A stretch of 64,000 bases of DNA from an uncultured Bacteroidales bacterium (GTDB lineage Bacteria > Bacteroidota > Bacteroidia > Bacteroidales > BM520): NCBI GenBank assembly GCA_964474455.1, contig CAYYSU010000007.1:760-64759 (forward strand). The letters run 5' to 3'. The first letter of the stretch is position 1. The number at the start of each line of letters is the position of its first letter. The translations under genes and the position numbers were made by a program. The notes under the pieces were generated by a model. That model was not told the origin of the DNA. It saw only the letters and a list, made by a program, of their open reading frames with translations, and did no database searches. Shown here one piece after another: positions 39,160 to 54,800 of the stretch.

Positions 39160-41064
39160 CTATTTCAGTTTCTGCCTCAGAAGGGCTTTATTCTTATCAT
39201 TATGAATAGGCTTACCTTCGGGAGTATAAAGATAATCAATTAGTTCACGGTAGAAATCAGTTACTTTTCCACGAACCATTTTCATGGTAGAGTTCATAAA
39301 TCCGTTCTGCTCATTAAATCCTTCCGGGAGTAGCCCAATAGATACGGGAAGCCACCTGTCGGGGAAGAGAGTATCATACTTACCACCTGAGAGATATGGG
39401 TCAATCTCTTCTTTAATAATCTGGATCGCAATGTCGACACCACGGATTGAGTCGGGTGTCACTTCACGTTTGGAAACCATTTTTTTCAACACATCGTAGT
39501 TTGGATGAATCAGTGCTACGGTATAAGGATTTTGATCATTATATAGCATAATTTCATCAATCACATCGCTATTCTCCACGATGGTCTCTTCGATACCTTC
39601 AGGGCTATGTTTTTCACCATCGTTGCTAATTAGCAGTGACTTGAAACGGCCAAGCACGAATAGGAATCCGTCTTTATCCATATATCCCATATCTCCGGTA
39701 TATAGCCACCCGTCGCGCAGAGCCTCATCAGTAGCCTTCTGGTTTTTCCAGTAACCTATCATCACATTCTCACCACGTATAACTATCTCGCCCGCTTCGC
39801 CAACAGGGAGTTCTTTGTCTTTGCTATCGATTATTTTTAGATCCATTGGTGTGACAAGAACGCCACTTGATCCGAGCTTATGCTTATGTAATGCGTTGGA
39901 GCTAATAACAGGCGAAGCTTCCGAAAGTCCGTAACCCTGCATCATGGGTATTCCCAGGGCGTAGTAAAAGCGCTGAAGCTCTATGTCCAAAAGTGCTCCT
40001 CCGCCAATAAAAAACTGTAGCTTTCCACCGAAAAACTCTCTAACCTTGCTAAAAATAATTTTATCGTAAGCCCATACCAACGGCTTCAAAAGGAAACTAA
40101 ATCCTGTACCTTTGTTATAGCCCTCTTTATAATACTTATATGACACCTGCAGCCCGCTCCATAGCAGCCAGGCAGTGAATTTTCCTTTTTCCTTTACGCC
40201 TTTAACAATATTTTTCTTAAAAGTTTTCGCCAAAGCCGGAACACTCATCAGCAGGTCTGGTTTAATCTGCTGTATGCTGTATGGGATGTTTCGTAGGATC
40301 TCATTGGTTGTTTTTCCAAGCTTTATAAATCCCACTCCTGCACCTTTTCTCATGAAGCTATAAAAACCCGCGGTGTGGGCAAAGCTATGATCTAAAGGCA
40401 GCAGTATCAGTGTTCTGAACGTCTCGGGGATAGTCATAAGAGTATAACTCTGATACACATTGGCGTAATAATTCAGATGACTAAGAATAATACCTTTGGG
40501 ATCTGCTGTTGTGCCCGAAGTATAGCATATATTGGCATAATCATTCTCTTGAATGGAGTCGATACGAGTTTGCAGTTCATCTGAATACCCCTCACAAAGC
40601 GACGAGCCTTCTTCCACCAGCTCGCTGAATGTCATCTCTTTTTCGCCATACTCTTCCAGGTCGTCGAAATAGATTAGCTTCTCCATCGCGGGGAGGTCGT
40701 TAAGTACGGCCTTTACTTTGGAGCCATGAAGTGCACTGGCGAAGACGAACTTCACTCCGGCGTGGCGCAGACGGAAGAGGACCTCTTGCTCGGTAAGCTT
40801 TATTGAAAGAGGCACGCTAATAGCAGCACATGACAGCACTGCCAGTTCAGAGATAATCCACTGGTTTCTTCCTTCCGAAAGAATTGCCAGGCGATCGCCC
40901 TTCTTTACCCCCAGGCGCAGCAGAGCACATGCCAGAGTTTTGACCTGATCAGCGGTCTCTTTATAAGTAGTTTCGTAATATCCTTGTCCTTTATCTTCTA
41001 AAAGAAAAGTGTTGTCGGCAAAGAGATCAACACTCTCTTTAAACAGGCTTGGTATAGTTCTCAT
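39160..41064 (-). CDS. Long-chain fatty acid--CoA ligase (AMP-binding family)
   Basis: AMP-binding motif ICYTSGTTADPKG, then GYGLSEASP and TGDMGYMDKDGFLFVLGRFK. The ORF is open to TTG at 41073. The ATG at 41064 lies downstream of a -7 box. Confidence 0.85.
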   Translation of the reverse strand: MRTIPSLFKESVDLFADNTFLLEDKGQGYYETTYKETADQVKTLACALLRLGVKKGDRLAILSEGRNQWIISELAVLSCAAISVPLSIKLTEQEVLFRLRHAGVKFVFASALHGSKVKAVLNDLPAMEKLIYFDDLEEYGEKEMTFSELVEEGSSLCEGYSDELQTRIDSIQENDYANICYTSGTTADPKGIILSHLNYYANVYQSYTLMTIPETFRTLILLPLDHSFAHTAGFYSFMRKGAGVGFIKLGKTTNEILRNIPYSIQQIKPDLLMSVPALAKTFKKNIVKGVKEKGKFTAWLLWSGLQVSYKYYKEGYNKGTGFSFLLKPLVWAYDKIIFSKVREFFGGKLQFFIGGGALLDIELQRFYYALGIPMMQGYGLSEASPVISSNALHKHKLGSSGVLVTPMDLKIIDSKDKELPVGEAGEIVIRGENVMIGYWKNQKATDEALRDGWLYTGDMGYMDKDGFLFVLGRFKSLLISNDGEKHSPEGIEETIVENSDVIDEIMLYNDQNPYTVALIHPNYDVLKKMVSKREVTPDSIRGVDIAIQIIKEEIDPYLSGGKYDTLFPDRWLPVSIGLLPEGFNEQNGFMNSTMKMVRGKVTDFYRELIDYLYTPEGKPIHNDKNKALLRQKLK

Positions 41065-41080
41065 AAAGTACAATTTTGGT

Positions 41081-41088
41081 CAAATATA
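41081..41088 (-). promoter_or_regulatory. -7 box TATATTTG (minus strand) for the acyl-CoA ligase gene
   Basis: Plus-strand CAAATATA at 41081-41088, 16 nt upstream of the ATG at 41064. Confidence 0.4.
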
Positions 41089-41359
41089 GAAAAAAGATAA
41101 CGGTATGACAAAAACTGCAAGGCAGAGCACTAAATATTAATAAAATTTAGACCTTCGAACCCCATGAACCACACCGAAAGAAAAAAATCCGATGTTAATT
41201 ATTCATTGCTTACAGTTATGAATTATTTTAGCAATTTGTACACAATAAAAAATAAAGCGTCACTTATTTTTAATACTTTTATAACGTGAATGTATCCAGA
41301 TACCTTGGAACTCATAAAAAACATATTCACTTGAATGTAATTTTTTAAAAACACAGGAC

Positions 41360-42622
41360 ATGAATGATGACTTAGATCAAGGTTTTGAGCCTCCGTTAAA
41401 AGAAGATCTTGCTTCGATTGATGCAGTCTTTACAACATCTAATACTGAAGAAAGTCCTTTTAGTAACACCAAAATTTCTATTTCGGACTTTAAAGTCATT
41501 AACACAATAACACAACAATTCAGGGAGACTCATTTTCCTGAAGCCACAGACAAACAGTGGAATAGTTGGCGATGGCAAATACAAAACAGTTATGTCAAAT
41601 TTAAAAAATTATCTGAAATACTAGATATTAGTAGTATTGATGATGTTGATTTTTTATCTAAATCAAGAAAACTTCCTTTAAGAATTACGCCTTATTATGC
41701 CAGTTTACTTTCGGGAAAACCTGTGACTTATGCATTAAGCAAAACAGTTGTCCCGGACAAGAAAGAACTTATCATTTCACCGGGTGAAGAATCCGATCCT
41801 CTGCATGAAGATGCTATGTGTCCGGTCTATAACCTGGTTCATCGTTATCCTGATAGAGTATTAATGCTGTCGACCGGTTTTTGTTCAACTTATTGTCGCT
41901 ATTGTACCCGCTCACACATGGTGCTTAAAGACAAGAAGCATTATGGAGTAAAGGCATGGGAAAAATCAATTGAATACATAAGAAATAATCAGAATGTCAG
42001 AGATGTGGTAATTTCCGGCGGTGATCCGCTAACTTTACCTGATAAGCATATTGAATTTCTGCTCTCTTCGCTAAGAGCGATTCCACATGTGGAAATTATT
42101 AGAATTGGAACAAAAGTACCAATGGTGCTCCCCCAGCGAATCACTAATAATTTAGTGAAGATGCTGAAAAAATATCACCCCGTCTATATGAGTATTCACA
42201 GTATCCATCCTGATGAAATAACTCCTGAAGTAATAGAAGCTGCCAATCGCATTGCTAATGCAGGAATTGTAATGGGTAGCCAAACCGTTTTGTTGCAGGG
42301 CGTAAATGATAATGTGGAAACCATGAAGAAATTAATGCATGAACTATTAAAAATCAGAATACGACCCTATTATATTTATCAGTGTGACCCCATTCCGGGT
42401 TCATCTCATTTCAGAACACCCGTTTCAATAGGTGTAAAAATTATTCATGGCCTCAGAGGCTTTACAAGTGGTTATGCAATACCCCATTATGTGATTGACG
42501 CACCCGGTGGAGGTGGAAAAATACCTTTATTACCAAACTATTATCAAGGAAGAAAAGGTGACTCTGTGGTGCTGGAAAATTTTGAAGGAAAAACCTATAA
42601 GTATTACGATCCTGAAAAGTAA
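41360..42622 (+). CDS. kamA: L-lysine 2,3-aminomutase (KamA/AblA family radical SAM, PLP-dependent)
   Basis: 420 aa. WNSWRWQIQN, radical-SAM CSTYCRYCTR, and SGGDPL. Equivalents of both Asp residues that bind the lysine epsilon-amine are present (YIYQCD, VIDAPGGGGK), as is the PLP lysine in GGGGK. Confidence 0.9.
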   Translation: MNDDLDQGFEPPLKEDLASIDAVFTTSNTEESPFSNTKISISDFKVINTITQQFRETHFPEATDKQWNSWRWQIQNSYVKFKKLSEILDISSIDDVDFLSKSRKLPLRITPYYASLLSGKPVTYALSKTVVPDKKELIISPGEESDPLHEDAMCPVYNLVHRYPDRVLMLSTGFCSTYCRYCTRSHMVLKDKKHYGVKAWEKSIEYIRNNQNVRDVVISGGDPLTLPDKHIEFLLSSLRAIPHVEIIRIGTKVPMVLPQRITNNLVKMLKKYHPVYMSIHSIHPDEITPEVIEAANRIANAGIVMGSQTVLLQGVNDNVETMKKLMHELLKIRIRPYYIYQCDPIPGSSHFRTPVSIGVKIIHGLRGFTSGYAIPHYVIDAPGGGGKIPLLPNYYQGRKGDSVVLENFEGKTYKYYDPEK

Positions 42623-42633
42623 AAAAGCAATGT

Positions 42634-44376
42634 ATGTTTATCATTAGAAAGATTGCCGATACTTATCATCAGTCCAATAAATATGCCATTGGACAGGTTT
42701 TGGATATTCTGAAAATTCAATTTTCTTCTCTTAAAGAAGAAAAAATAAATGATGTTCTCGAACAGATGAAGGATCCTTTAAAATATCGTTTTTCATCTCA
42801 AATTTTTGTGGCTGAAGATGGCAAAGGTAATGTGAAAGGGTTTGCAATTTTGTTTTATATGCCTGATAAAAACTTCTGCTACCTCGACTACATAGCTGTT
42901 AAACCAAGCAGAATTTCTTCCGGTGTTGGTGGTGCCATATACGAAAGGATCAGAGAAGAAGCACAACTTTTAAATTCAATTGGAATATTTATGGAGTGCC
43001 TTCCTGATGACGAAGAATTATGCAAAGACAAAAGTGAAATAAAGCAAAATAAAGCTCGATTGGCATTTTATGAACGTTACGGAGCCAGACCTATCATAGG
43101 CACCAAATATGAAACACCCGTAAATCCGGAGGATAGTTGTCCTCCATATTTGGTTTTTGATGATTTGGGAAATGATATACGTTTATCTTCGGCGCAGGCA
43201 AAAAAAATAATCAGGGCTATATTGGAGCGAAAATATCCAAACTATTGTCCTGAGGATTATATCCAAACAGTAATCAAATCAATCAATGATAATCCTGTCA
43301 AATTAAGAGAATTCAAATATCTTGTTAAAGACAGGCCTATACAAAAAATCGAAGCCGTTAAAGATGAGATTATGCTGATAGTAAATGATAAGCATGACAT
43401 CCATCACATAAAAGAAAGAGGATATATAGAATCGCCGGTTCGCATAAAAAGTATAACCAAAGAGATTGAAAAATTAAATGCATTCAAAATGAGACCATCA
43501 CGAGGGTTTCCCGACAGGCTCATTACTGAAGTTCATAATCCCAAATTATTTAATTATATTAAAACTGTCTGCGATAAAATTCCGGAAGGCAAGTCTATTT
43601 ATCCTTATGTTTTTCCCATCAGAAATGCAACACGTCCGCCCAAAGATTATTCAGTTCTTGCAGGATACTATTGCATCGACACATTTACACCAATAAACAA
43701 AAACGCATTTTTAGCAGCTCGTTCCGGAGTCAATTGCGCACTCACCGGAGCCGAATTATTATTGGAGGGTTATCATAGTGCTTATGCTTTGATTCGTCCT
43801 CCGGGGCATCATGCTGAAACGGAGGTTTTTGGAGGTTTTTGTTATTTTAATAATGCTTCTATCGCGGCAAACTTTCTTTCCAAATATGGTAAGGTGGCAA
43901 TTCTGGATATCGACTACCACCATGGAAACGGGCACCAGCAAATTTTTTATAATCGCAATGATGTGTTCACCGTGTCCATACATGGTAATCCTTCTTTTGC
44001 TTACCCTTATTTCACCGGTTTTGCCGATGAAAAAGGTGAGGGCGAGGGCGAGGGATATAATTTAAACTACCCCATAAAAGAGAATTTAAATGGCGATGAA
44101 TACCTTGTGTACCTCAAGCAGGTTATTAAAAAAATTATCAGCTTTAAACCCGAATATCTGATCATAAGTTTGGGCTTTGATCCTGCTAAAGGAGATCCCA
44201 CCGGAACATGGTCATTAAAAGCCAGCGATTTCAAAAATAATGGTGCCGAATTAGGAAAGATACCCGTTCCGATTTTATTTGTGCAAGAGGGGGGTTATAA
44301 AAACAGAACCCTGGGCATCAATGCCCGGAATTTTTTTGAAGGATATTTATCCACAAGAATAAGAAGAAAACAATGA
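42634..44376 (+). CDS. Fusion protein: N-terminal GNAT-like domain + C-terminal HDAC-family (acetylpolyamine amidohydrolase-like) deacetylase
   Basis: 580 aa. N-terminal ~180 aa carry a GNAT-like beta4-alpha3 signature (YIAVKPSRISSGVGGAIYERIREEA). The C-terminal domain has all HDAC catalytic motifs: RPPGHHAE, ILDIDYHHGNG, SLGFDPAKGDP and QEGGY. Confidence 0.85.
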   Translation: MFIIRKIADTYHQSNKYAIGQVLDILKIQFSSLKEEKINDVLEQMKDPLKYRFSSQIFVAEDGKGNVKGFAILFYMPDKNFCYLDYIAVKPSRISSGVGGAIYERIREEAQLLNSIGIFMECLPDDEELCKDKSEIKQNKARLAFYERYGARPIIGTKYETPVNPEDSCPPYLVFDDLGNDIRLSSAQAKKIIRAILERKYPNYCPEDYIQTVIKSINDNPVKLREFKYLVKDRPIQKIEAVKDEIMLIVNDKHDIHHIKERGYIESPVRIKSITKEIEKLNAFKMRPSRGFPDRLITEVHNPKLFNYIKTVCDKIPEGKSIYPYVFPIRNATRPPKDYSVLAGYYCIDTFTPINKNAFLAARSGVNCALTGAELLLEGYHSAYALIRPPGHHAETEVFGGFCYFNNASIAANFLSKYGKVAILDIDYHHGNGHQQIFYNRNDVFTVSIHGNPSFAYPYFTGFADEKGEGEGEGYNLNYPIKENLNGDEYLVYLKQVIKKIISFKPEYLIISLGFDPAKGDPTGTWSLKASDFKNNGAELGKIPVPILFVQEGGYKNRTLGINARNFFEGYLSTRIRRKQ

Positions 44377-45347
44377 AAGTAGGATTAACATACGACCTGA
44401 GAATCGATTATCTCAATGAAGGTTATTCTTTGGAGGAGACGGCTGAATTTGACAAGGAAAGCACCATTGAAGGCATTGAGCAAGCTATTCAAAAGGAGGG
44501 ATATGAGACCCACCGTATTGGAAATGCCAAAAGTTTAATAATACAGTTGCTGGCTGGAGAAAGTTGGGATATTATCTTTAATATAACCGAAGGCCTTTAT
44601 GGTGAAGGGCGCGAATCGCTGGTGCCTGCCCTGTTGGATATGTACAAAATACCCTATGTCTTCTCCGGACCTGTTACATTAGGAATATCGTTAAACAAAG
44701 CCTTTGCTAAACAGATTGTAAGAGATAGCGGAATTAACACACCACCATTTTATGTGGTTTCAAAAACCACAGATATTGAAAAGATCAAGCTTCAATACCC
44801 TCTTTTTGCGAAACCTGTTGCGGAGGGTACCGGCAAAGGAATAACCAACCGTTCTCTTATCAAAACAGAGGATCAACTTCTTAGTGTTTGTACTCAATTG
44901 CTCGAAAAATATAATCAACCTGTTCTAGTAGAAGAATTTTTACCCGGAAGAGAATTTACCGTCGGGGTACTCGGAACCGGTGAGACAGCCCGGGTGCCCG
45001 GAGCCATGGAAATTATTTCTAAACAGAAAGATTCCACGCAAATATACTCTTACGACACAAAAGAAAACTACGCAGATAAGATAGAATATGTACCTGTTAC
45101 CGGCGAACTGCTGGAAGCCTGCAAAGATTTAGCGCTGGGCGCATGGAGGGCTCTTAATTGTTACGACGGCGGACGCGTTGATGTAAAAGTGGATCGTTAT
45201 GGAAAAATGAGCTTTATAGAAGTAAACCCTTTGGCCGGACTGAACCCCGTTACTTCAGATTTACCCATCTTATGTGGATTAAACGGAATGTCGTATCAGG
45301 AGATTATTTCAGAAATAATGAAATCAGCAATTAAGAGAAATTTTTAG
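44373..45347 (+). CDS. ATP-grasp ligase, D-Ala-D-Ala ligase-like family (non-canonical), copy 1
   Basis: 324 aa. LFAKPVAEGTGKGI, VEEFLPGREFTVGVLG and GRVDVKVDRYGKMSFIEVNPLAGL match the Ddl C-terminal ATP-grasp fold. The Ddl N-terminal GGxSxEHEVS motif is absent. The start overlaps the upstream stop (ATGA). Confidence 0.85.
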   Translation: MKVGLTYDLRIDYLNEGYSLEETAEFDKESTIEGIEQAIQKEGYETHRIGNAKSLIIQLLAGESWDIIFNITEGLYGEGRESLVPALLDMYKIPYVFSGPVTLGISLNKAFAKQIVRDSGINTPPFYVVSKTTDIEKIKLQYPLFAKPVAEGTGKGITNRSLIKTEDQLLSVCTQLLEKYNQPVLVEEFLPGREFTVGVLGTGETARVPGAMEIISKQKDSTQIYSYDTKENYADKIEYVPVTGELLEACKDLALGAWRALNCYDGGRVDVKVDRYGKMSFIEVNPLAGLNPVTSDLPILCGLNGMSYQEIISEIMKSAIKRNF

Positions 45348-45349
45348 TC

Positions 45350-46312
45350 ATGAGTAAAATAATTATTCTTCACAATAAAATTCAGAATCACACCGAAGAT
45401 GAATTAGATGTCCTCGACCAGAGAGATTTAGTAACAGAGGCGTGTAAAAATTTAGGGCATGATGTTATTACAATGACGGTTGGAGATGACATTCAGGCAG
45501 ATCTAAAGATAGTGCAGGCACAGCAACCGGATATAGTTTTCAATTTAGTAGAGTCAAGTTGGGGAAAAGGCGAGTTACTCTATTTTTCTCCTGCCATATT
45601 AAATTCATTAAAAATACCCTATACCGGCATACCTCTTGACGCTTTATTTATAAGCACCAATAAAGTTTTGGCTAAAAAAATAATGCGATTATTCAATTTA
45701 CCCACAGCCGACTTTTTTGCTATGGATGAAATCAACAAACTGGATGCATCAAAAACCTATATCATAAAACCAATTTGGGAAGAAGCTTCTGTTGGAATTG
45801 ACACAGATTCAGTATTTCAGCCCCGCGACACCGATAAGTTGAAAAAATTGGCTCAACTATCTTCTTCTCATTATTTTATTGAGGAATATATTGATGGGCG
45901 GGAATTTAATGTCAGCCTTTTGGCTGATAAAAACGGACTGGAAGTTTTACCTCCTGCCGAAATGTTGTTTACATCATTTTTCGACAACAAACCTAAAGTG
46001 ATCGGATACAAAGCAAAATGGGATGAAAACAGTGAAGAATATAAGCAAACGAACAGGGCTTTCGGGACGCTTGAAAACAATATGCCATTAAAAAAGAAAA
46101 TGACAGATGTATGCCGCAAAAGCTGGAAAGCATTTAACCTGCACGGCTATGCCAGAATAGATTTTAGGGTGGACGATAAGGACAACCTGTATATTTTGGA
46201 AATAAACGGTAATCCTTGCATAGCACCTGACAGCGGATTTATTGCGGCCATAAACTATGCAGGATATAGTAATGAAATCATTGTAAAACGCATTCTGGAA
46301 GACATAAATTAG
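45350..46312 (+). CDS. ATP-grasp ligase, D-Ala-D-Ala ligase-like family (non-canonical), copy 2
   Basis: 320 aa, a paralogue of copy 1 (DIVFNLVES...LKIPYTG...NKVLAKKIM; YIIKPIWEEASVGI; IEEYIDGREFNVSLL; ARIDFRVDDKDNLYILEINGNPCIAP). Starts 2 nt after the upstream stop. Confidence 0.85.
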   Translation: MSKIIILHNKIQNHTEDELDVLDQRDLVTEACKNLGHDVITMTVGDDIQADLKIVQAQQPDIVFNLVESSWGKGELLYFSPAILNSLKIPYTGIPLDALFISTNKVLAKKIMRLFNLPTADFFAMDEINKLDASKTYIIKPIWEEASVGIDTDSVFQPRDTDKLKKLAQLSSSHYFIEEYIDGREFNVSLLADKNGLEVLPPAEMLFTSFFDNKPKVIGYKAKWDENSEEYKQTNRAFGTLENNMPLKKKMTDVCRKSWKAFNLHGYARIDFRVDDKDNLYILEINGNPCIAPDSGFIAAINYAGYSNEIIVKRILEDIN

Positions 46313-46313
46313 A

Positions 46314-46796
46314 ATGATGATATTTAGAAGAAAACTAAGACCGGATGATGTTTTTTCTGTGAAAGAGATATTAGATTCTACCGGATTGTTTTACAATTCA
46401 GAAGTGGAAATTGCCCGGGAGTTAGCCTGGAAAAACATCAATGAAGGAGAAGAGAAGAGCGGTTATATTTTTAATATCGTTGAAATTGATGATAAACCTG
46501 TTGGGTTTACCTGCTATGGTAAAATCCCAGGTACTGCCGATAGTTTTGATTTATACTGGATTGCCATTCATGCCTCTCAGCAAAAAAAAGGTGTTGGAAA
46601 GATACTCATGTCTATGGCTATAGAGGATATTGAAAAACGGCAAGGCAAAAATATCTGGATAGAGACTTCCTCACGACCAATCTATGAGACTACCCGGCAA
46701 TTTTATATAAAATCCGATTGTCAATTAATCACAGAGCTACCAAATTTTTATGGTCCCAACGACAACAAGGTAGTTTTTCTAAAAAAAATTCATTAA
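46314..46796 (+). CDS. GNAT-family N-acetyltransferase
   Basis: 160 aa. Acetyl-CoA motif A in IAIHASQQKKGVGKILMSMAIEDI. Starts 1 nt after the upstream stop. Confidence 0.85.
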   Translation: MMIFRRKLRPDDVFSVKEILDSTGLFYNSEVEIARELAWKNINEGEEKSGYIFNIVEIDDKPVGFTCYGKIPGTADSFDLYWIAIHASQQKKGVGKILMSMAIEDIEKRQGKNIWIETSSRPIYETTRQFYIKSDCQLITELPNFYGPNDNKVVFLKKIH

Positions 46797-47051: not shown

Positions 47052-48245
47052 ATGGATGATATTAAAACAATCGTAAACGGTCTGGCGCACGATACAATCG
47101 ACGAAGTCGTTTCCATCAGAAGGAAAATCCATGCGTACCCGGAGATCTCTTTCGACGAGTATAAAACATCGGAACTGATACAGCAGAAACTCAAGGAGTG
47201 GGGCATCCATTTTCAGGGCGGCATTGCCACCACGGGAGTGGTAGCGCTTATCGAAGGCCACAATCCTGAAGGCCCAGTAATTGCTATGCGCGCCGATATG
47301 GATGCGCTTCCCATAGAAGAAAAAAATGACGTGGAATACGCCTCCGTCAGGCCGGGGTACATGCATGCCTGCGGCCACGACGCACACACCGCCATGGTAC
47401 TTGGTGCCGGAAAGATCATCCATGAGCTGCGCGATTATTTCTCGGGCAAAGTGATGCTTATCTTCCAGCCTTCCGAAGAGACGTACCCCGGCGGAGCAAA
47501 GGTGATGCTCGAAGAGGGCATCTTCAGCAAGATAAAACCTGATCTTATCTTCGGGCAACATGTTCTTCCGGAGCTCAACAGCGGAACAATAGGTATGCGC
47601 CCCGGACAATATATGGCTTCCTCCGACGAATTCTACATCCGTGTTCGAGGCAAAGGAGGGCACGGCGCTACCCCACACCTCAACATCGATCCCGTGGTTA
47701 TTGCTTCAGAGATAGTCCTTGCACTACAAACTCTGGTGAGCCGTAAAGCACACCCCGCCATGCCTACGGTAATATCTGTGGGAAAAATGATCGCCGACGG
47801 ACTCCCGAATGTCACCCCCGAAATAGTGGACATGGAGGGAATCATAAGAACCTTCGACGACAAATGGCGCAAAGAGATGCACCAGCTGGTAAAAAATACC
47901 GTCAAAGGTATATCTCACAGCCATGGCGCTACAGCAGAGGTAAATATCATCCATGGCTATCCATCTATATACAACGACGTTGACGTCACCGCAAGGGTAA
48001 AAAGATATGCAGAGATCTACTGGGGGAAACAAAATGTTAAAAATCTGCCTCAACGGATGACTTCCGACGATATGGCCTATTTCCTTAAAGAGGTTCCCGG
48101 GACATACTACCGTCTGGGATCAGGAAACCCGGAGAAGGGAATCACCGCCAACCTCCATTCTTCTACCTTTGACATTGACGAAGAGACACTACTTCCAGGG
48201 ATGGCATTCCTCTCGTATGTCGTACTTTCGGAGCTCGAGCGTTGA
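47052..48245 (+). CDS. M20D-family amidohydrolase (N-acyl-amino acid amidohydrolase / hippurate hydrolase-like)
   Basis: 397 aa from ATG 47052. IRRKIHAYPEISFDEYKTS, MHACGHDAHT, and QPSEE...GGA. The track ORF starts at GTG 46935, but that hydrophobic extension precedes the promoter box. Confidence 0.85.
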   Translation: MDDIKTIVNGLAHDTIDEVVSIRRKIHAYPEISFDEYKTSELIQQKLKEWGIHFQGGIATTGVVALIEGHNPEGPVIAMRADMDALPIEEKNDVEYASVRPGYMHACGHDAHTAMVLGAGKIIHELRDYFSGKVMLIFQPSEETYPGGAKVMLEEGIFSKIKPDLIFGQHVLPELNSGTIGMRPGQYMASSDEFYIRVRGKGGHGATPHLNIDPVVIASEIVLALQTLVSRKAHPAMPTVISVGKMIADGLPNVTPEIVDMEGIIRTFDDKWRKEMHQLVKNTVKGISHSHGATAEVNIIHGYPSIYNDVDVTARVKRYAEIYWGKQNVKNLPQRMTSDDMAYFLKEVPGTYYRLGSGNPEKGITANLHSSTFDIDEETLLPGMAFLSYVVLSELER

Positions 48246-48322: not shown

Positions 48323-48383
48323 GCACTCTTCGGCAAGGATCTGATACATATTGTCAAGTACACTTTCCGTTAACCCTGAAGCT

Positions 48384-49454
48384 ATGAAAGTAAACAACAT
48401 CCACTACCTTACCATCCGCATGGAAGGCTCTTCCGTTTTTATGGTAGAGCAAAACAAGTTACCCTTTGAATTCACTGTTTATGAAGCCAAAAGCTACCGT
48501 GATACGTGCATGGCAATTACTACTATGATCACGCGCGGTGCCGGCGCCATCGGTGCCGCCGGCGGCTTCGCCATGGCGCAGGCCTTTATGGACACCGTTC
48601 CCCCAAAGCAGCCCAGGGAAACGAACAGGGAATCTTACCTCCGGAAAGCCCGCGAAGAGATCCGGAAGACACGCCCCACAGCACAAAACCTCTTCTACGC
48701 CATCGACAGGGTGTATAAAGCAGGAATGGAAGATGGTGAAGATGCTGCCATAGCAGAGGCACAAAAGATAGCTCAGGAGAATGTGGAAGAAGGACGCACC
48801 ATCGGGATGTATGGACGTGAGCTTATCACCGACGGCATGAAGGTGATGACACACTGCAACGCCGGATGGCTGGGATTTGTGGACTACGGAACCGCTGTCT
48901 CGGTTATACATCTCGCCCGGGAGCAGGGCAAGAAGTTCTTTGTGTGGGCTAACGAGACCCGGCCACGCAGCCAGGGAGCACGCCTCACAGCATGGGAGTT
49001 GGTCAATGCCGGCATCTATCACGCCATTGTCCCCGACAACGCCGGTGCATGGCTTATGGAAAAAGGCGACGTGGATATGATTATCGTCGGGGCGGATCGC
49101 ATCGCTGCCAATGGCGACACGGCGAATAAAATCGGAACCCTCGAAAAGGCCATAGTGGCAAAACGTTTCAACGTGCCGTTCTATGTGGCCGCGCCACTCT
49201 CCACCTTTGATATGGAGTGCCCTGATGGTTCACAAATACCTATCGAACAGCGAAGCGAAGATGAAGTGCACTACCAAACGGGGCCGGACAGGGAGGGCAT
49301 AATGCGAACCATACGTGTTTCAGCACCGGGATCAAAAGCAATAAACCCTGCCTTCGACGTGACACCTGCTGAACTCATCACCGCGATCATTACCGACAAA
49401 GGAATTATTAAACCCGAAACCAAAACCATAGCAGCGTTGTTTAACAGACAGTAA
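48384..49454 (+). CDS. mtnA: eIF-2B alpha/beta/delta-family sugar-phosphate isomerase (S-methyl-5-thioribose-1-phosphate isomerase-like)
   Basis: 356 aa from ATG 48384. MITRGAGAIGAAGGFAMAQ, HCNAGWL, ETRPRSQGARLTAWEL, GADRIAANGDTANKIGT, and DVTPAELITAIITDKG. Exact substrate (MTR-1-P versus another ribose-1-phosphate derivative) cannot be fixed from sequence. Confidence 0.7.
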   Translation: MKVNNIHYLTIRMEGSSVFMVEQNKLPFEFTVYEAKSYRDTCMAITTMITRGAGAIGAAGGFAMAQAFMDTVPPKQPRETNRESYLRKAREEIRKTRPTAQNLFYAIDRVYKAGMEDGEDAAIAEAQKIAQENVEEGRTIGMYGRELITDGMKVMTHCNAGWLGFVDYGTAVSVIHLAREQGKKFFVWANETRPRSQGARLTAWELVNAGIYHAIVPDNAGAWLMEKGDVDMIIVGADRIAANGDTANKIGTLEKAIVAKRFNVPFYVAAPLSTFDMECPDGSQIPIEQRSEDEVHYQTGPDREGIMRTIRVSAPGSKAINPAFDVTPAELITAIITDKGIIKPETKTIAALFNRQ

Positions 49455-49473: not shown

Positions 49474-51300
49474 ATGAACGAAAAAGCACTACGCCCGATT
49501 ACCGACTGGCTGCCCATCACCAAACAGGAGATGGAAAAGCACGGCTGGTCGCAACCCGATGTTATACTTATCAGCGGCGACGCTTATGTGGATCACCCTG
49601 CATTTGGAAATGCCTTTATCGCCCGCGTGCTGGAATATGCCGGGCTGAAAGTAGCAATCATCCCACAACCCAACTGGCAGGATGACCTGAGAGACTTTAA
49701 GAAGTTCGGAGCACCGAGACTCTTTTTTGCCATCACCTCCGGAAATATGGACTCTATGGTGAACCATTATACCGCAAACAAACGCTTACGCTCCGACGAT
49801 GCATATACACCGGGAAATAAGGCCGGTTTTAGACCCGACTACGCCCTCACCGTTTATAGTAAAATCATCAAAGAGCTATATCCTGATTCGCCGGTTATAA
49901 TCGGCGGCATAGAAGCGTCACTGCGAAGGCTCACACACTACGACTACTGGTCGGATGAGTTAAAGCAGTCGGTGCTGGCGGAGACAAAAGCCGACCTCCT
50001 GGTTTACGGCATGGGAGAATTACCTATTACGCAAATAGCTGAACGCATACAAAAAGGGGAAGATATCTCCACATTGACGGATATTCCACAGACGGCACTT
50101 CTCACCACAAACCCCACCCCGGAAGCCACATTCCTGGCAGAATTTAACCTCTGCAAAAAGGACAAACGAGCCTTCGCTGAGGCATTTAAAATCATAGAGA
50201 CAGAGTCGAACAGGATGAAGCCTGCAACGCTGGCACAGAAACAGGAAGACGGAATCTTCGTGCAGGTAAACCCACCATTTCCAACCATGGAAAGCCATAT
50301 ACTGGACAAATATTACGAATTGCCATACACCAGAACACCTCATCCCAAATATAAAAAACGCGGAGTTATTCCGGCGTATGAGATGATTCGCCACTCAGTG
50401 AACATCCATCGCGGATGCTTTGGCGGATGCGCCTTCTGCACAATATCAGCACACCAGGGGAAATTTATCGCCTCCAGAAGTGAGAAATCCATACTTAAAG
50501 AGGTGAAAAAGATTACAGAAATGGAGGATTTCTACGGCACCATTACCGACCTGGGAGGGCCGTCGGCTAATATGTACCGCATGAAAGGTGTGGACGAAAG
50601 GTTGTGTCTCAAATGCAGAAGACCGTCGTGTGTGTTTCCCATGATCTGCAAAAACCTGGATGCAGATCACAAACCCTTAACAGAACTATACACCAAAGCG
50701 CGAAAGATAAAAGGTGTGAAGCACGTATTCATCAGTAGCGGCATACGTTACGACATGCTGCTATCCGCAAACCATCATACCAATGTACATATCAGCGAAT
50801 ACACATCCAATCTCATCCGGCATCATATCAGTGGTAGGCTAAAGGTAGCGCCGGAGCACACCTCCGACGATGTGCTTAACATCATGAGAAAGGGAAGCTT
50901 TTCACAGTTTCATGTATTCAAGAAGCTCTTCGACAAGGGCAACAAAGAGGTCGGATTAAAGCAGCAGCTTATCCCCTATTTCATCAGTAGTCACCCGGGG
51001 AGTAAACTAACAGATATGGCTCATCTTGCCGCAGAGACCAAGGCCATGGGCTTTCGTTTGGAGCAGATCCAGGATTTCACTCCCACACCGATGACCCTGG
51101 CCACAGTAATGTTCTACACCGGCCTTGACCCGTACACCGGGAAGCCTGTTTACACCGCCAAATCACAGAATGACAAGAGAGATCAGCGGATATTCTTTTT
51201 CTGGTACAAGGGAGAAAACCGACGCCGTATCACCACCATCTTAGATAAGGAGAACAGGCTCGATCTGGCGAAGGCGCTGTTGGCAGGCAAGAAAAGGTGA
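49474..51300 (+). CDS. ygiQ: YgiQ-family radical SAM protein (UPF0313)
   Basis: 608 aa. N-terminal DVILISGDAYVDHPAFGNAFIARVLE and radical-SAM-type Cys motif RGCFGGCAFCTI are typical of YgiQ. Confidence 0.88.
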   Translation: MNEKALRPITDWLPITKQEMEKHGWSQPDVILISGDAYVDHPAFGNAFIARVLEYAGLKVAIIPQPNWQDDLRDFKKFGAPRLFFAITSGNMDSMVNHYTANKRLRSDDAYTPGNKAGFRPDYALTVYSKIIKELYPDSPVIIGGIEASLRRLTHYDYWSDELKQSVLAETKADLLVYGMGELPITQIAERIQKGEDISTLTDIPQTALLTTNPTPEATFLAEFNLCKKDKRAFAEAFKIIETESNRMKPATLAQKQEDGIFVQVNPPFPTMESHILDKYYELPYTRTPHPKYKKRGVIPAYEMIRHSVNIHRGCFGGCAFCTISAHQGKFIASRSEKSILKEVKKITEMEDFYGTITDLGGPSANMYRMKGVDERLCLKCRRPSCVFPMICKNLDADHKPLTELYTKARKIKGVKHVFISSGIRYDMLLSANHHTNVHISEYTSNLIRHHISGRLKVAPEHTSDDVLNIMRKGSFSQFHVFKKLFDKGNKEVGLKQQLIPYFISSHPGSKLTDMAHLAAETKAMGFRLEQIQDFTPTPMTLATVMFYTGLDPYTGKPVYTAKSQNDKRDQRIFFFWYKGENRRRITTILDKENRLDLAKALLAGKKR

Positions 51301-51830: not shown

Positions 51831-54800
51831 TTATCGCCCCACAACAAATCTTTTTACAGCAGTTCCCAGAGCTGTCTTTATCTTAAGCATATATACTCCG
51901 GGGCTGAGATCTTCTGTTTCGATCTCTGTCTTTCCGTAACATCCGTCCTTAATCATAAGTTCCTGACCTGATATAGTGTACACTTTAACACTATAGTCGT
52001 TATTATTCATAACCTCAACAAACAGCACATCTTTAGCGGGGACAGGATACATATTCACTGTTAGTATAGCATTTTCAGGATTTCCGGTAACTTTTGTAAA
52101 TGAGGTTACTGCACCTAAGCCATTGGAGGCGAAAAGTTCCTTATTCGGGTAGTTTTCACTGAATTCGGCTGCCAATATGGTTTCCGTATTCGTCTCTTTC
52201 TGCCATAAGCGGAATTGCATCGGTTCATTCTCTATCATACCGTCAATAGAATCTGTGGTAGGATCATCGCCGAACACTGTAACTGCACTATTTTGTCCAT
52301 TTTGAGATATCTCAACGACACCCACGCAACGACCGGCTGCATTAAATACTCCGAGGATATCGCCACTACAAAACTCCGATATCACATCAGATACTAAAGA
52401 TATAATATGCGAATTTGCTGTACGGGTAACACTATTCCATGGGTTTACAAACTCTTTAGTATAATTCTCGACCTTCGAGGCTGTTCCATTTGCAAATGAT
52501 ATCTGAGCAGGATTCTCCAGAGCCAACATATATGATTTTCCGGGTGTCAGGGTCTGAAGGCTATAAACCTGAGTTCCAGGCCAGTATACTTCAGGAGAGG
52601 CAACGGCTTTTACGATTAAGATATTCCCTGCAAGAGGTTCAAAAACAGAGGCTGCGGAGACCGGATCTTCAACGAGAACAGGTATCAGGCTCCATCCCTG
52701 ATCCAGATCGATAGCAAGTACTTCTGCCGGGTCTCCGATGAAGGTAACATTAACAGGATTCTCAACCTTAATTTTATACCCCTGCCATGTATCCCAGTTC
52801 GGGATCGTATTAGCATAAGGTGGCCAGTAAACTCCGGTGAGATCTTTCACAATAACGAGGTCATCAAATATTGGAGCAAAGATATTCTCCGTGCTATTAT
52901 CGTCAGGGACTACCCATGAGGATATTCCACTCCATCCTGCATTCAAAGAGACCTGATGAACAGATTGGCATGTATCTACTACATTTACGGTAACCTCAGC
53001 ACAATTTGAGATACCACATAAGGATTCCCATAAAGCATAATATGTTGTCGTATCCTGAGGAGAGGGGATTATTATCTGTATGCCTGTTCCAATAGCACCG
53101 CCACCGCAGCTTCCTTCATACCAGTTCACAACATCACCATTTCCACCATGTGCGGTAAGGGTAATTGTTCCGGGATCATTAATACATACTTCCGTTTGTG
53201 ATGCCGTAACCTCTTCAGGTGCTTCAGGTAAAGGAAGTACTGTCACAACGACAGGAACACATTCTGAAACAGCACACTCATTTTCCCATTGAGCACAATA
53301 TATTGTTTCCTCAACAGGAGAATCAACAAATAAAGGAGAACCCGTTCCTATCATAACATCATCTACATACCAGGCAATATTTTCACCTGCGCCACCCTGA
53401 GCATAAAGAGTTATCTGACCGGGGTCATTAACACAAACCTCTTCAACAGAAGCATATACAGTTTCAGGAGCTACGGGAAGCTCTATTACTGTCACATCTA
53501 CAGAGATACAATCGCTGATACCACAACTGTTTTCCCATGCAGCACAATATGTGGTAGGGATAACCGGGGATGCCAAAGTTAGCGGAGTACCGGAGCCGAT
53601 ATAGTTGTCATTGGCAAACCACTTCATCTCATCACCGGAACCCTCTTCACTATAAAGGGTTATTGTTCCGGAATCGTTAATACACACATTAGAATCTGAT
53701 ACTGTTACAAGAGTTGGAGCTACAGGAAGAGGAAGAACGGTTATTGTGAATGGCGTGCATTCACTAAATCCGCAGCTATTTTCAAAAGCGGCACAATATG
53801 TTGTTGTTATCTCAGGAGAATCGATAGTTATATCACTTCCGGTACCGATTTCAAGGTCTTCAACATACCAGTGTACAACATCTCCACTTCCGCCAACAGC
53901 AGTTAGAGTAATTGTTCCGGGGTCGTTAACACACACTTGATCGCGTGATGAGACCACCATATCGGGAGCTATGGCAACAGGAAGGACATTTACCGTTACC
54001 GGTATCAACTCGCTGCTGTCGCATATATTTTTCCATGCGGCATAGTATGTTGTAGTCTCTTCAGGTGAATCGACCTCTAAAGGTGTTCCTGTTCCTGCTA
54101 TTTCTCCATTGGCATACCAATTCAGGACATCACCACTACCACCTATGGCAGCAAGCTCTATTGTTCCTGAATCATTAATACAAACCTCATAATCTGATGA
54201 GATCACTGATTCCGGAGCGACAGGTAATGGTAAGACCGTAATGGTAACCGATACACACTCTGTAATACCACAGTTATTTTCATATTGGGCGCAGTATGTA
54301 GTGGTAACTTCCGGAGAGTTGATGACAAGTGGATTTCCGATGCCCATTTCTATACCTTCAGAGAACCATCGTAATATAGCACCATTTCCTCCGGTTGCGG
54401 TAAGAAAAATTGTTCCGGCATCGTCAGCACAGAAGCCATCTCTGTCTGAAGTAATGCTTTGTGGCGCCACCGGCTGGTCAACAACAATCACTGTAGCATT
54501 ATCTGAAGCCGAGGAGAGGAATGTACTTAAATCGCAACGATAAACTGTATTTGCATTTGGCGATACAATAATCTGAGTTTGTGAAGAAGAGAACCCTGCC
54601 GGTATTGATGACCAGGCAAATGTATAATTTCCGGATCCACCACCCGGGCTGGCACTCAATATAAGATTGTTGCCTGCACATAGTTCTGTGCTTTCAGGCC
54701 ACACCTCCACAGTAAGCACATCTGCATTAAGACTTAATAGTTCGCTAAGCGCATTGGTATGATATTTTCCATCAAAGGTATAGGGATTCGTAACATGATA

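Follow-up and report, generated by a model that had tools for sequence, protein, structure and literature searches.

A conserved gene cassette combining a KamA-family aminomutase, two ATP-grasp ligases and GNAT acetyltransferases, with a predicted role in beta-lysine conjugation

Introduction

In the ablA/ablB system of methanogens (yodP-kamA in Bacillus) the genes of a KamA-family aminomutase and a GNAT acetyltransferase are transcribed together and beta-lysine is the likely intermediate, features that it has in common with the locus described here. The EpmA/EpmB system, by which beta-lysine is attached to EF-P, also uses a short aminomutase of the KamA family that, like the one at our locus, lacks the clostridial C-terminal region. 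Beta-lysine is furthermore a hallmark of the streptothricin-class antibiotics, to which resistance is conferred by N-acetylation of the beta-lysine.

Small peptides can be formed through acyl-phosphate chemistry by ATP-grasp enzymes of the Ddl fold. Two successive ligations lead to glutathione (glutathione synthetase/GshF), and in carnosine synthase it is a beta-amino acid that is activated. NAGGN is reportedly synthesized by the bifunctional GNAT/ATP-grasp enzyme Ngg plus AsnO, so that acetylation and ATP-grasp peptide bond formation give a small N-acetylated cytoplasmic solute without ribosome or NRPS. Other ATP-grasp enzymes, such as RimK and TTL, extend proteins. In the polyamine cycle (SpeG/PaiA/SSAT with APAH/HDAC10) the pairing of a GNAT with an acetylpolyamine amidohydrolase (APAH) lets the charge of a long-chain primary amine be switched reversibly. 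A description of the cassette reported here was not found in the searchable literature.

Results

Organization of the operon

The window analysed is a stretch of 64,000 nucleotides from an uncultured Bacteroidales bacterium. Its relevant features are as follows.

41074..41359, + strand, AT-rich leader of 286 nt, presumed promoter region (sequence read)
41360..42622, + strand, KamA-family radical-SAM/PLP 2,3-aminomutase, short form (420 aa; Pfam Radical_SAM and LAM_C)
42634..43173, + strand, N-terminal GNAT acetyltransferase domain of a fusion protein (aa 1-180; Pfam Acetyltransf_7/1)
43174..43374, + strand, helical linker of the GNAT-deacetylase fusion (aa 181-247; predicted structure)
43375..44376, + strand, C-terminal Zn-dependent deacetylase domain of the APAH type (aa 248-580; Pfam Hist_deacetyl 5e-72)
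44373..45347, + strand, predicted ATP-grasp amide ligase 1 (324 aa; Pfam Dala_Dala_lig_C 1e-28)
45350..46312, + strand, predicted ATP-grasp amide ligase 2 (320 aa; Pfam Dala_Dala_lig_C 3e-18)
46314..46796, + strand, predicted small GNAT N-acetyltransferase (160 aa; Pfam Acetyltransf_1)

It had originally been predicted that five co-directional ORFs with these domains, spaced by 11, -4, 2 and 1 nt, form one compact module. The ORFs, their junctions and the Pfam matches confirmed this arrangement, and the tight packing with its ATGA overlap bears out a single module. Read from the sequence, the kamA/fusion junction consists of TAA, 11 nt and ATG. The fusion ORF as a whole spans 42634-44376 (580 aa, + strand), and ligase 1 starts within its stop codon (-4 nt, the ATGA overlap). 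The remaining junctions are TAG, 2 nt, ATG (ligase 1/ligase 2) and TAG, 1 nt, ATG (ligase 2/small GNAT).

The leader separates kamA from a divergent acyl-CoA ligase gene. No Rfam family, including the lysine and other riboswitches, was found in its 286 nt at E<=1. A sigma-70 consensus scan, the consensus of which omits Bacteroidota promoters, did not score above shuffled sequences. A RiPP of the graspetide type was considered as product of the operon and rejected: the operon has no intergenic room for a precursor peptide gene, the small-ORF clusters are only frame shadows of conserved genes, and both ligases belong to the Ddl type and not to the microviridin-type ATP-grasp enzymes.

Conservation and distribution of the cassette

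Of the 170 loci retrieved from other genomes, in which some contigs are represented twice, 79 contained all five genes and 34 the four-gene core of kamA, ligase 1, ligase 2 and small GNAT. The gene order varied, with at least six arrangements; ligase 2 directly followed ligase 1 in every locus. The hosts are several hundred species, mostly anaerobic bacteria, from more than 10 phyla, including Bacteroidota, Spirochaetota, Nitrospinota, Elusimicrobiota, Marinimicrobia and Desulfobacterota, and further Gamma- and Alphaproteobacteria, Planctomycetota, Chloroflexota, Acidobacteriota and Myxococcota. According to the record titles, many of the samples were marine or saline, and freshwater lakes and groundwater were also represented. 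The five ORFs at 41360-46796 are a real operon that is conserved far beyond this genome.

Loss of synteny in related genomes had been named at the outset as the observation that would speak against a common pathway; the cassette proved to be syntenic across many phyla. That unrelated genes were juxtaposed by chance, for which it could only be advanced that GNAT and ATP-grasp domains are generic, is refuted by this census and has a negligible probability, as linkage was retained in more than 100 loci from more than 10 phyla despite shuffled order and unrelated flanks.

The cassette proteins are 60-80% identical across phyla and the GC content of the cassette is below that of its surroundings, both of which are signs of lateral transfer. 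Clustering of all ORFs of at least 90 aa in 84 loci yielded no sixth recurrent family, transporter or regulator. Plasmid-borne copies of the cassette were not found, and a search with defence-system profiles gave no matches.

These data bear on the proposal that the genes produce a bioactive compound for secretion, namely an antibiotic or signal based on beta-lysine, with acetylation and deacetylation serving self-protection and activation. Beta-lysine is typical of the streptothricin class, the signs of lateral transfer are compatible with such a cluster, and nourseothricin acetyltransferase and OrfE occur among the non-discriminating Foldseek matches of the fusion GNAT. However, an exporter, an immunity gene and a regulator are missing from the conserved neighbours, no plasmid-borne copy or defence profile came up, and high conservation in several hundred species is unusual for a specialized antibiotic cluster. 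We regard this proposal as improbable.

The KamA homologue has a lysine-type active site

The KamA homologue could be aligned without gaps to the lysine 2,3-aminomutase 2A5H (48% identity over 361 aa). Its CSTYCRYC motif is located at aa 175-182, and the cysteines C175, C179 and C182 correspond to the [4Fe-4S] ligands C125, C129 and C132 of 2A5H in the CxxxCxxC pattern. The PLP lysine (K387, equivalent to K337) and the substrate-binding residues R184, D343 and D380 (R134, D293 and D330) are also retained. In lysine 2,3-aminomutase, Arg134 presumably binds the lysine carboxylate and Asp293 and Asp330 the epsilon-ammonium group. Among 45 members of the family the Fe-S cysteines and the PLP lysine are invariant or nearly so, the Arg134 equivalent is present in all 45 and both Asp equivalents in 44. 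The sole exception carries a Lys/Asn pair at the Asp293/Asp330 positions, which we take to be the signature of the glutamate enzyme. Because of this complete radical-SAM/PLP machinery, together with the Arg and the two lysine-holding Asp residues, the homologue should make beta-lysine from L-lysine; given the Asp/Asp pair, another basic amino acid could also be its substrate.

The zinc site of the clostridial enzyme (Cys268 plus Cys375/377/380) is absent: C268 is replaced by N here and by N, D or S across the family, and a C-terminal Cys triad is lacking. The protein stops near residue 370 of the clostridial enzyme and has an N-terminal extension of about 57 aa. The KamA family model TIGR00238 is the only NCBIfam model whose cut-off it passes. 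With 438.5 bits it falls short of the AblA equivalog model TIGR03820 (cut-off 525.4), and it likewise remains below the Glu model (401.8; cut-off 650), the Arg model (350.9; cut-off 600) and the EpmB model TIGR03821 (240.1; cut-off 369.3). The retained residues and the low EpmB and Glu scores agree with the original prediction of a lysine-type enzyme that is neither EpmB-like nor glutamate-type.

EF-P beta-lysylation was rejected on the EpmB score (240.1 versus 369.3) and for want of linkage to epmA (a LysRS paralogue) or efp among the conserved neighbours. Lysine fermentation (kamA-kamDE-kdd-kce-kal) was rejected likewise, as B12-dependent 5,6-aminomutase and downstream catabolic genes did not recur in the 84 loci and were absent from the neighbourhood in the window. 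As originally claimed, the cassette matches none of the abl, epm and kam-fermentation systems.

Could the locus still be an abl-type osmolyte operon, in which KamA and one GNAT make the known compatible solute N-epsilon-acetyl-beta-lysine for recycling by the deacetylase, with only a peripheral role for the ligases? The AblA model was the top NCBIfam match of all 26 cassette KamAs scanned (the best at E 2.5e-150, extrapolated to about 500 bits), GNATs are encoded in the cassette, many hosts were sampled at marine or saline sites, and hydrolysis of an N-epsilon-acetyl group suits the chemistry of an APAH-type enzyme. However, the KamA homologue is below the AblA threshold and without the C-terminal Zn region, and neither GNAT-bearing protein matched the AblB family model (NCBIfam scan, E<=0.01). 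The cassette adds an APAH-type deacetylase and two obligatory ATP-grasp ligases, and it is to these ligases that kamA is most tightly linked, both of them occurring side by side in every core. Hosts were also found in freshwater lakes and groundwater. Moreover, the order of Pelobacter carries cassette variants, yet for Pelobacter itself a distinct ablA/ablB pair of the canonical kind has been reported (PMC3543383). We consider an abl-type operon very unlikely.

Two ATP-grasp ligases with altered specificity residues

The ligases had been called Ddl-like. This is correct for the fold, which they share with the Ddl/Van ligases along with the complete ATP/Mg/acyl-phosphate residue set, but not for the specificity. 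Both keep K97, K144, E180, K215, R255, D257, E270 and N272 of E. coli DdlB (conservation was counted over 45-46 ligase-1 and 40-42 ligase-2 sequences), and ligase 1 also keeps G276 and S281. In contrast, the D-alanine positions (H63, L282 and the triad E15/S150/Y216) are replaced, as far as they could be aligned, in ligase 1 by H63->E, S150->T, Y216->E and L282->D, and ligase 2 shows H63->E, S150->A, Y216->invariant W, G276->C/D and L282->G, as read from an alignment to DdlB of about 25% identity in which E15 was not alignable. The best PDB and NCBIfam matches were Ddl proteins (1e-16 to 1e-46), all sub-threshold; at 157 bits for ligase 1 and 117 bits for ligase 2 against an NCBIfam Ddl cut-off of 243, the ligases score below all Ddl cut-offs. 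They appear to combine a Ddl fold and an intact catalytic set with loss of the D-alanine specificity residues.

The three acidic replacements in the pocket of ligase 1 (E/E/D at 63/216/282) suggest that a cationic substrate with two amino groups, for instance beta-lysine, would fit, and the wider pocket of ligase 2 (with Gly at 282 and the invariant Trp at 216) that it could take a larger second-step substrate. At 24% identity to ligase 1 (E 3e-22), ligase 2 is an ancient paralogue. The two could also act together as a heteromer, with a single bond as their product.

The GNAT-deacetylase fusion

The fusion protein was without any match in the NCBIfam scan (E<=0.01). Its GNAT domain keeps the acetyl-CoA loop G-x-G-G/S in 82 of 83 homologues and adopts a GNAT fold in the AlphaFold2 model (pLDDT 84). 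A sequence search of the PDB with this domain gave no match, and the Foldseek matches of the model (Gcn5, 2R7H, PaiA and AAC(6'), all at E ~1e-6) did not discriminate between them. Nourseothricin acetyltransferase and OrfE were also among these matches and were not separable from the other GNATs. The linker, in which about 20% of the columns are at least 90% conserved, was modelled as two helices (aa 186-215) followed by a segment of low confidence.

In the deacetylase domain the His-His dyad H392/H393, the Zn ligands D427, H429 and D516, and Y555 are invariant (83 of 83). Its nearest PDB relatives are APAHs (9GKZ, 6e-73; 6PHR, 1e-67; 3Q9B, 6e-62), behind which HDAC6 (2e-58) and other matches (<=1e-35) rank. 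The domain is predicted to be catalytically intact and groups with the small-molecule acetylpolyamine amidohydrolases; N-epsilon-acetyl-beta-lysyl compounds are its proposed substrates. Unlike in the polyamine cycle, a single polypeptide carries both the acetyltransferase and the deacetylase, and it is genetically linked to a core for beta-lysine formation and ligation. Polyamine biosynthesis genes were not linked to the cassette.

The small GNAT

The small GNAT matched PDB 2R7H (Dde_3044 of Desulfovibrio G20) over its full length (E 2.5e-27), and a protein 99% identical to 2R7H was located in a kamA>ligase1>ligase2>GNAT core. By sequence, it is the orthologue of 2R7H (Dde_3044). The GNAT fold holds little information on the acceptor; the NCBIfam scan added weak matches to RimI models.

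These matches, and the resemblance of the fusion GNAT model to Gcn5 and RimI among others, could point to modification of a macromolecule, with beta-lysine, or a short peptide containing it, being joined to a polymer (such as a protein or a peptidoglycan precursor) that would also be the substrate of the GNATs and the deacetylase. Some ATP-grasp enzymes (RimK, TTL) do extend proteins and EF-P carries beta-lysine in the Epm system. Nevertheless, no EpmA-like gene, other target-recognition gene or conserved target gene lies beside the cassette, and the EpmB score is 240 against a cut-off of 369. The deacetylase is closer to small-molecule APAHs than to protein deacetylases, Ddl-type ligases act on small substrates, and the cassette moves across phyla as an independent unit. 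Macromolecule modification is rather unlikely.

A proposed pathway

With moderate confidence we propose from these sequence features that the cassette is a self-contained mobile module that would convert free beta-lysine into a small, intracellular N-acetylated amide conjugate, a pseudo-di- or tripeptide. The short-form KamA enzyme would convert L-lysine into beta-lysine, each ligase would form one amide bond through an acyl-phosphate, and the small GNAT would acetylate a remaining amine. In an accessory step the fusion may place an acetyl group on a primary amine of the epsilon-amino type, in either the product or an intermediate, and take it off again. The conjugate may function as a compatible solute, a polyamine-like cation or otherwise. 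Such a pathway would resemble NAGGN synthesis in function only, any homology seen being at the superfamily level: GNAT and ligases are encoded by separate genes, not by a fused Ngg, there are two ligases, a radical-SAM aminomutase would make the building block, and no amidotransferase comparable to AsnO is conserved nearby. The ligases also have no sequence-level membership in the GshF or carnosine synthase families.

A narrower and doubtful version of the conjugate is a short cationic beta-lysine oligo-amide, e.g. epsilon-linked di- or tri-beta-lysine with one acetyl cap, which might be a polyamine-like intracellular polycation in many anaerobes with the fusion as a rheostat that sets its charge by acetylation and deacetylation. 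If true, this would add a fifth to the fates of beta-lysine and provide a route to beta-lysine chains independent of ribosome and NRPS. To our knowledge, such chains are so far known only from the streptothricin antibiotics.

For the conjugate pathway in general, the predicted protecting-group order (acetylate, ligate twice, deacetylate) is possible, but it was not established, the fusion being absent from about one-third of the cassette loci. Together with its unlinked position in at least two MAGs, in which the four-gene core and an orphan fusion are on separate contigs of the same genome, this absence indicates that the fusion, although part of the operon here, is an accessory module that is often unlinked elsewhere and not an obligatory in-line step. 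A transient protecting group then fits no better, and perhaps less well, than a role in reversible acetylation or turnover, and by analogy with polyamine acetylation/deacetylation we consider a reversible switch or turnover device slightly more likely. The fusion occurred alone in about 25 loci of each fusion-anchored set, so a role outside the beta-lysine pathway is also possible.

Organization of the cassette

The five open reading frames (ORFs) of the cassette were found exactly at the coordinates of the original prediction, all on the forward strand.

Genes of the cassette (window coordinates, strand, product and Pfam domains)
41360-42622, +, kamA-family aminomutase; Radical_SAM and LAM_C domains
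42634-44376, +, GNAT-deacetylase fusion; GNAT domain, then a histone-deacetylase-type domain (5e-72)
44373-45347, +, ligase 1; D-Ala-D-Ala-ligase C-terminal ATP-grasp domain
45350-46312, +, ligase 2; D-Ala-D-Ala-ligase C-terminal ATP-grasp domain
46314-46796, +, small GNAT; GNAT domain

The successive junctions, read directly, are TAA-11 nt-ATG, an ATGA stop/start overlap, TAG-2 nt-ATG and TAG-1 nt-ATG. No riboswitch or other known RNA was detected in the kamA leader, and scans for sigma-70 promoters and terminators gave no excess over shuffled sequences (Bacteroidota promoters lie outside the sigma-70 consensus). Defence-system profiles gave no matches and the search for a precursor peptide or small ORF yielded frame shadows only.

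The KamA-family aminomutase

The KamA homologue could be aligned without gaps to lysine 2,3-aminomutase (LAM) of Clostridium subterminale (2A5H), with 48% identity over 361 residues. The Fe-S cysteines, Arg134, Asp293, Asp330 and the PLP lysine Lys337 of 2A5H are all kept, corresponding to residues 175/179/182, 184, 343, 380 and 387 of the query; the roles of these residues are those assigned in the published LAM structure. Among 45 homologues drawn from related loci the three Fe-S cysteines and Arg134 were invariant, and Asp293, Asp330 and Lys337 were present in 44. The sole exception lies outside any cassette and has Lys and Asn in place of the two Asp residues, presumably the signature of glutamate 2,3-aminomutase. 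This indicates that the Asp positions do discriminate.

In other respects the enzyme departs from a textbook LAM. Another residue stands in place of Cys268 and the chain stops before the C-terminal Cys triad, which implies that the zinc site of LAM is absent; its N-terminus is extended by about 57 residues. All NCBIfam equivalog models failed (bits against cut-off: AblA 438.5/525.4; glutamate 401.8/650; arginine 350.9/600; EpmB 240.1/369.3), the generic KamA-family model being the only one passed, and the ranking of the models was the same across 26 cassette KamAs. A grouping with EpmB or with the glutamate enzymes, the possibility that had been held against the original prediction, is thus not borne out by the NCBIfam scores and the active-site residues. 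Formation of beta-lysine by this enzyme is predicted, with good support from its sequence.

A Nanoarchaeota-labelled metagenome-assembled genome (MAG; L074 5258-7057, minus strand, same contig as L224) encodes a KamA homologue of 599 aa in which LAM positions 293/330 are Lys/Asn, the pair of glutamate 2,3-aminomutase; an orphan GNAT-deacetylase fusion lies at a distance of about 3 kb. Besides, kamA and ligase 1 are separated by a Cys-rich ORF of 172-175 aa in three genomes, which belong to different phyla.

Positions of the Cys-rich ORF (coordinates within each fetched locus)
L077, 5371-5886
L083, 5264-5773
L085 (same contig as L069), 4937-5461

It was assigned, with a borderline score, to the CxxCxxCC/YkgJ family (Pfam PF03692) and could assist the radical-SAM enzyme with Fe-S or Zn.

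The ATP-grasp ligases

In the PDB, ligases 1 and 2 matched solely Ddl/Van ligases, and these weakly (1e-22 and 3e-16); both remained far under the NCBIfam Ddl cut-offs. For comparison of single residues, 46 ligase-1 and 42 ligase-2 sequences were aligned with Escherichia coli DdlB, the reference being a sequence in which 15 of 15 known residues stand at their published numbers. The residues for ATP, Mg and acyl-phosphate are kept in both ligases (K97, K144, E180, K215, R255, D257, E270 and N272 in DdlB numbering). At the D-Ala specificity positions ligase 1 has Glu 63, Thr 150, Glu 216 and Asp 282; ligase 2 has Glu 63, Ala 150, an invariant Trp 216, Cys or Asp 276 and Gly 282. Because the catalytic set is kept while the residues for D-alanine specificity are replaced, both ligases are probably functional in amide formation, and neither one is a D-Ala-D-Ala ligase. 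The three extra acidic side chains of ligase 1, placed by a low-identity alignment, would suit a cationic substrate. The two ligases are ancient paralogues (24% identity). Carriage of the cassette on plasmids was not found, and the best plasmid ATP-grasp relatives (pNGR234a) sit in an unrelated context.

The ligase pair was seen to be split by selfish-looking inserts in L012, where a 148-aa ORF between 8806 and 10639 resembles an IS200/REP-type transposase by eye, and in L148, where a 125-aa ORF lies between ligase 1 and ligase 2. In L015 and L136 a second ligase-1-like gene is present about 4 kb 3' of the small GNAT, preceded by a RhaT-family permease, a URO-D-like protein and an ORF of 229-231 aa that is metallophosphoesterase-like by eye. 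This second set may belong to a separate or extended pathway.

The acetylation and deacetylation domains

All catalytic and zinc-binding residues of the C-terminal domain of the fusion were invariant among 83 homologues. Its closest solved structures are acetylpolyamine amidohydrolases (APAHs; 6e-73 to 6e-62), followed by HDAC6, with other protein deacetylases well behind. The N-terminal domain has a GNAT fold in the AlphaFold2 model (pLDDT 84) and keeps the glycines of the acetyl-CoA loop. A Foldseek search with this domain returned Gcn5, PaiA, AAC(6') and others, all near 1e-6; as many GNATs match equally, assignment of an acceptor or substrate from this search was dropped.

The small GNAT matched PDB entry 2R7H over its full length (2.5e-27), which is Dde_3044 of Desulfovibrio G20 according to the Foldseek annotation. 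A protein 99% identical to 2R7H ends a core of the order kamA>ligase 1>ligase 2>GNAT. This indicates that 2R7H, a structural-genomics entry, belongs to the same system. Neither GNAT of the cassette matched the AblB family, and no relationship between the two could be detected. In about 10 loci (including L208, L059, L075, L080, L021 and L055) the fusion adjoins the small GNAT and neither kamA nor a ligase lies in the vicinity, a hint that the pair constitutes a separate acetylation sub-module.

Conservation and distribution of the cassette

Relatives of the cassette are not rare and occur in more than ten phyla, mostly in bacteria from anoxic sediment, groundwater and marine settings. Relatives of the fusion, among which plain deacetylases may be included, were found in at least 596 species-representative genomes and those of ligase 1 in at least 330, and the small-GNAT family comprises at least 2,277 sequence clusters at E≤1e-20. 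All five genes were present in 79 of the 170 fetched loci, some of whose contigs had been fetched twice, and the four-gene core (kamA, both ligases and the small GNAT, but no fusion) in 34. Anchoring on a Desulfovibrio fusion gave 76 further new loci with 38 complete sets. At least six gene orders were encountered, ligase 2 always being located directly after ligase 1. Clustering of all ORFs from 84 loci revealed no sixth recurrent family (transporter, regulator or amidotransferase). The fusion stood alone in about 25 loci of each fusion-anchored set, and two MAGs carry an orphan fusion and a four-gene core on separate contigs of the same genome (L005/L152; L037/L156). Since the fusion is so often alone or unlinked, it is the four-gene core that forms the invariant unit, with the fusion as an accessory positioned in the operon (here translationally coupled) or elsewhere.

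The closest relatives of the fusion belong to Marinilabiliales, and proteins 70-90% identical to it were found in MAGs of Marinimicrobia, Nitrospinota, Elusimicrobiota, Spirochaetota and 'Proteobacteria'. In Oceanispirochaeta crateris, one Nitrospinota MAG and one Elusimicrobiota MAG the other four genes adjoin the fusion and the flanks are unrelated, kamA being at the 3' end of the cassette in O. crateris. Where the order is that of the window (kamA>fusion>ligase 1>ligase 2>GNAT; L001, L002, L004, L093, L121 and L123), each of the five proteins is 60-80% identical between loci that span Bacteroidota, Marinimicrobia, Nitrospinota, Elusimicrobiota and Spirochaetota. The cassette is also somewhat AT-richer than its surroundings, with a GC fraction of 0.376 against 0.419 for the window. 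Together, this identity across phyla and the deviating composition suggest that the whole module was transferred laterally, fairly recently.

In two Desulfovibrio-type genomes a gene for a sigma-54 enhancer-binding protein is located directly 5' of kamA (L168 3874-5503; L170 3857-5472). Between activator gene and kamA both contain, at the orthologous position, a -24/-12-like element, TGGCAT-N5-TTGCT, total match counts for which were not above chance. It hints, weakly, at control linked to nitrogen or stress in the Desulfovibrio lineage only.

Proposed pathway

Beta-lysine has a handful of known fates, to which the cassette would add another. In the overall scheme, which we consider an even call, lysine would be converted to beta-lysine, two successive acyl-phosphate ligations would yield a pseudo-di- or tripeptide containing beta-lysine, and the small GNAT would place an acetyl group on a remaining amine. 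The fusion would both attach an acetyl group to an epsilon-amino-type amine and take it off again. The original prediction assigned a protecting-group logic to these steps. That is possible, because epsilon-acetylation would block self-reaction of activated beta-lysine. However, the fusion is frequently separated from the core, and a function as reversible switch or turnover device fits at least as well. No exporter, immunity gene or target gene is conserved with the cassette, which speaks for a product that is soluble and stays in the cytoplasm. Judged from the titles of the sequence records, the anoxic habitats of the hosts are both saline and freshwater, so that an exclusive role as osmolyte is not indicated.

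Membership in five known systems (abl, epm, lysine fermentation, Ddl and graspetide) was rejected because defining features of each were looked for and found lacking. In its predicted way of working the cassette comes closest to the small GNAT/ATP-grasp solute pathways (NAGGN) and to peptide synthases of the ATP-grasp type that take beta-amino acids or work one after the other (carnosine synthase, glutathione synthesis). To these the cassette adds a first step of the abl type and an acetylation/deacetylation pair in the style of polyamine systems. No description of the cassette was found in the full-text literature on beta-lysine or aminomutase with ATP-grasp, deacetylase, APAH, Ddl, ablA, LysX or sigma-54; outside this literature lies the 2009 amidoligase survey (Iyer et al.), which may predict the neighbourhood in silico. 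A Pelobacter genome paper and a sigma-54 regulon paper were irrelevant to it, nor are its genes mentioned in the main text of the G20 transposon paper or in that of the DvH sigma-54 regulome paper. We rate the cassette as familiar enzyme families in an undescribed, widespread beta-lysine pathway.

This reading offers a testable function for 2R7H, a solved structure without an assigned role, and covers many genes now annotated as 'D-alanine--D-alanine ligase', 'histone deacetylase' or 'AcuC-like'. It further suggests a novel, probably abundant metabolite in the cytoplasm of organisms such as Desulfovibrio, Marinilabiliales, Woeseiaceae and Dehalococcoidales. Cultured hosts that bear the cassette, some of them genetically tractable, allow a direct test of the hypothesis. 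They include Ancylomarina sp. 16SWW S1-10-2, which has all five genes, Oceanispirochaeta crateris, Dasania phycosphaerae GY-19, Desulfovibrio mangrovi (L170) and D. alaskensis G20, in which the four-gene core surrounds Dde_3044.

Surroundings of the cassette in the window

Apart from the cassette, the window carries ordinary chromosomal genes (uvrC, suf genes, dxs, obg and one for a GH92 enzyme). The two genes flanking the cassette were considered as pathway members.

Flanking genes (window coordinates, strand, product)
39160-41073, -, long-chain acyl-CoA ligase, divergent, upstream of the cassette
47052-48245, +, M20 amidohydrolase (CpsA/DoeB2-like, below equivalog cut-offs), 255 nt 3' of the cassette

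Both were rejected because they are unlinked to the cassette in other genomes. Between 48001 and 50000 the local GC fraction rises up to 0.50, against about 0.42 elsewhere. This rise spans an IF-2B-family gene (48351-49454), probably for an MtnA-type isomerase, and the start of an ORF at 49474-51300 (608 aa) that is radical-SAM-like by eye. Two very large ORFs are present, at 301-7554 on the forward strand (2417 aa) and at 51831-57056 on the reverse strand (1741 aa). In the latter, a module of about 95 aa containing conserved Cys pairs is repeated many times in tandem, and the product may be a cell-surface or secreted protein.
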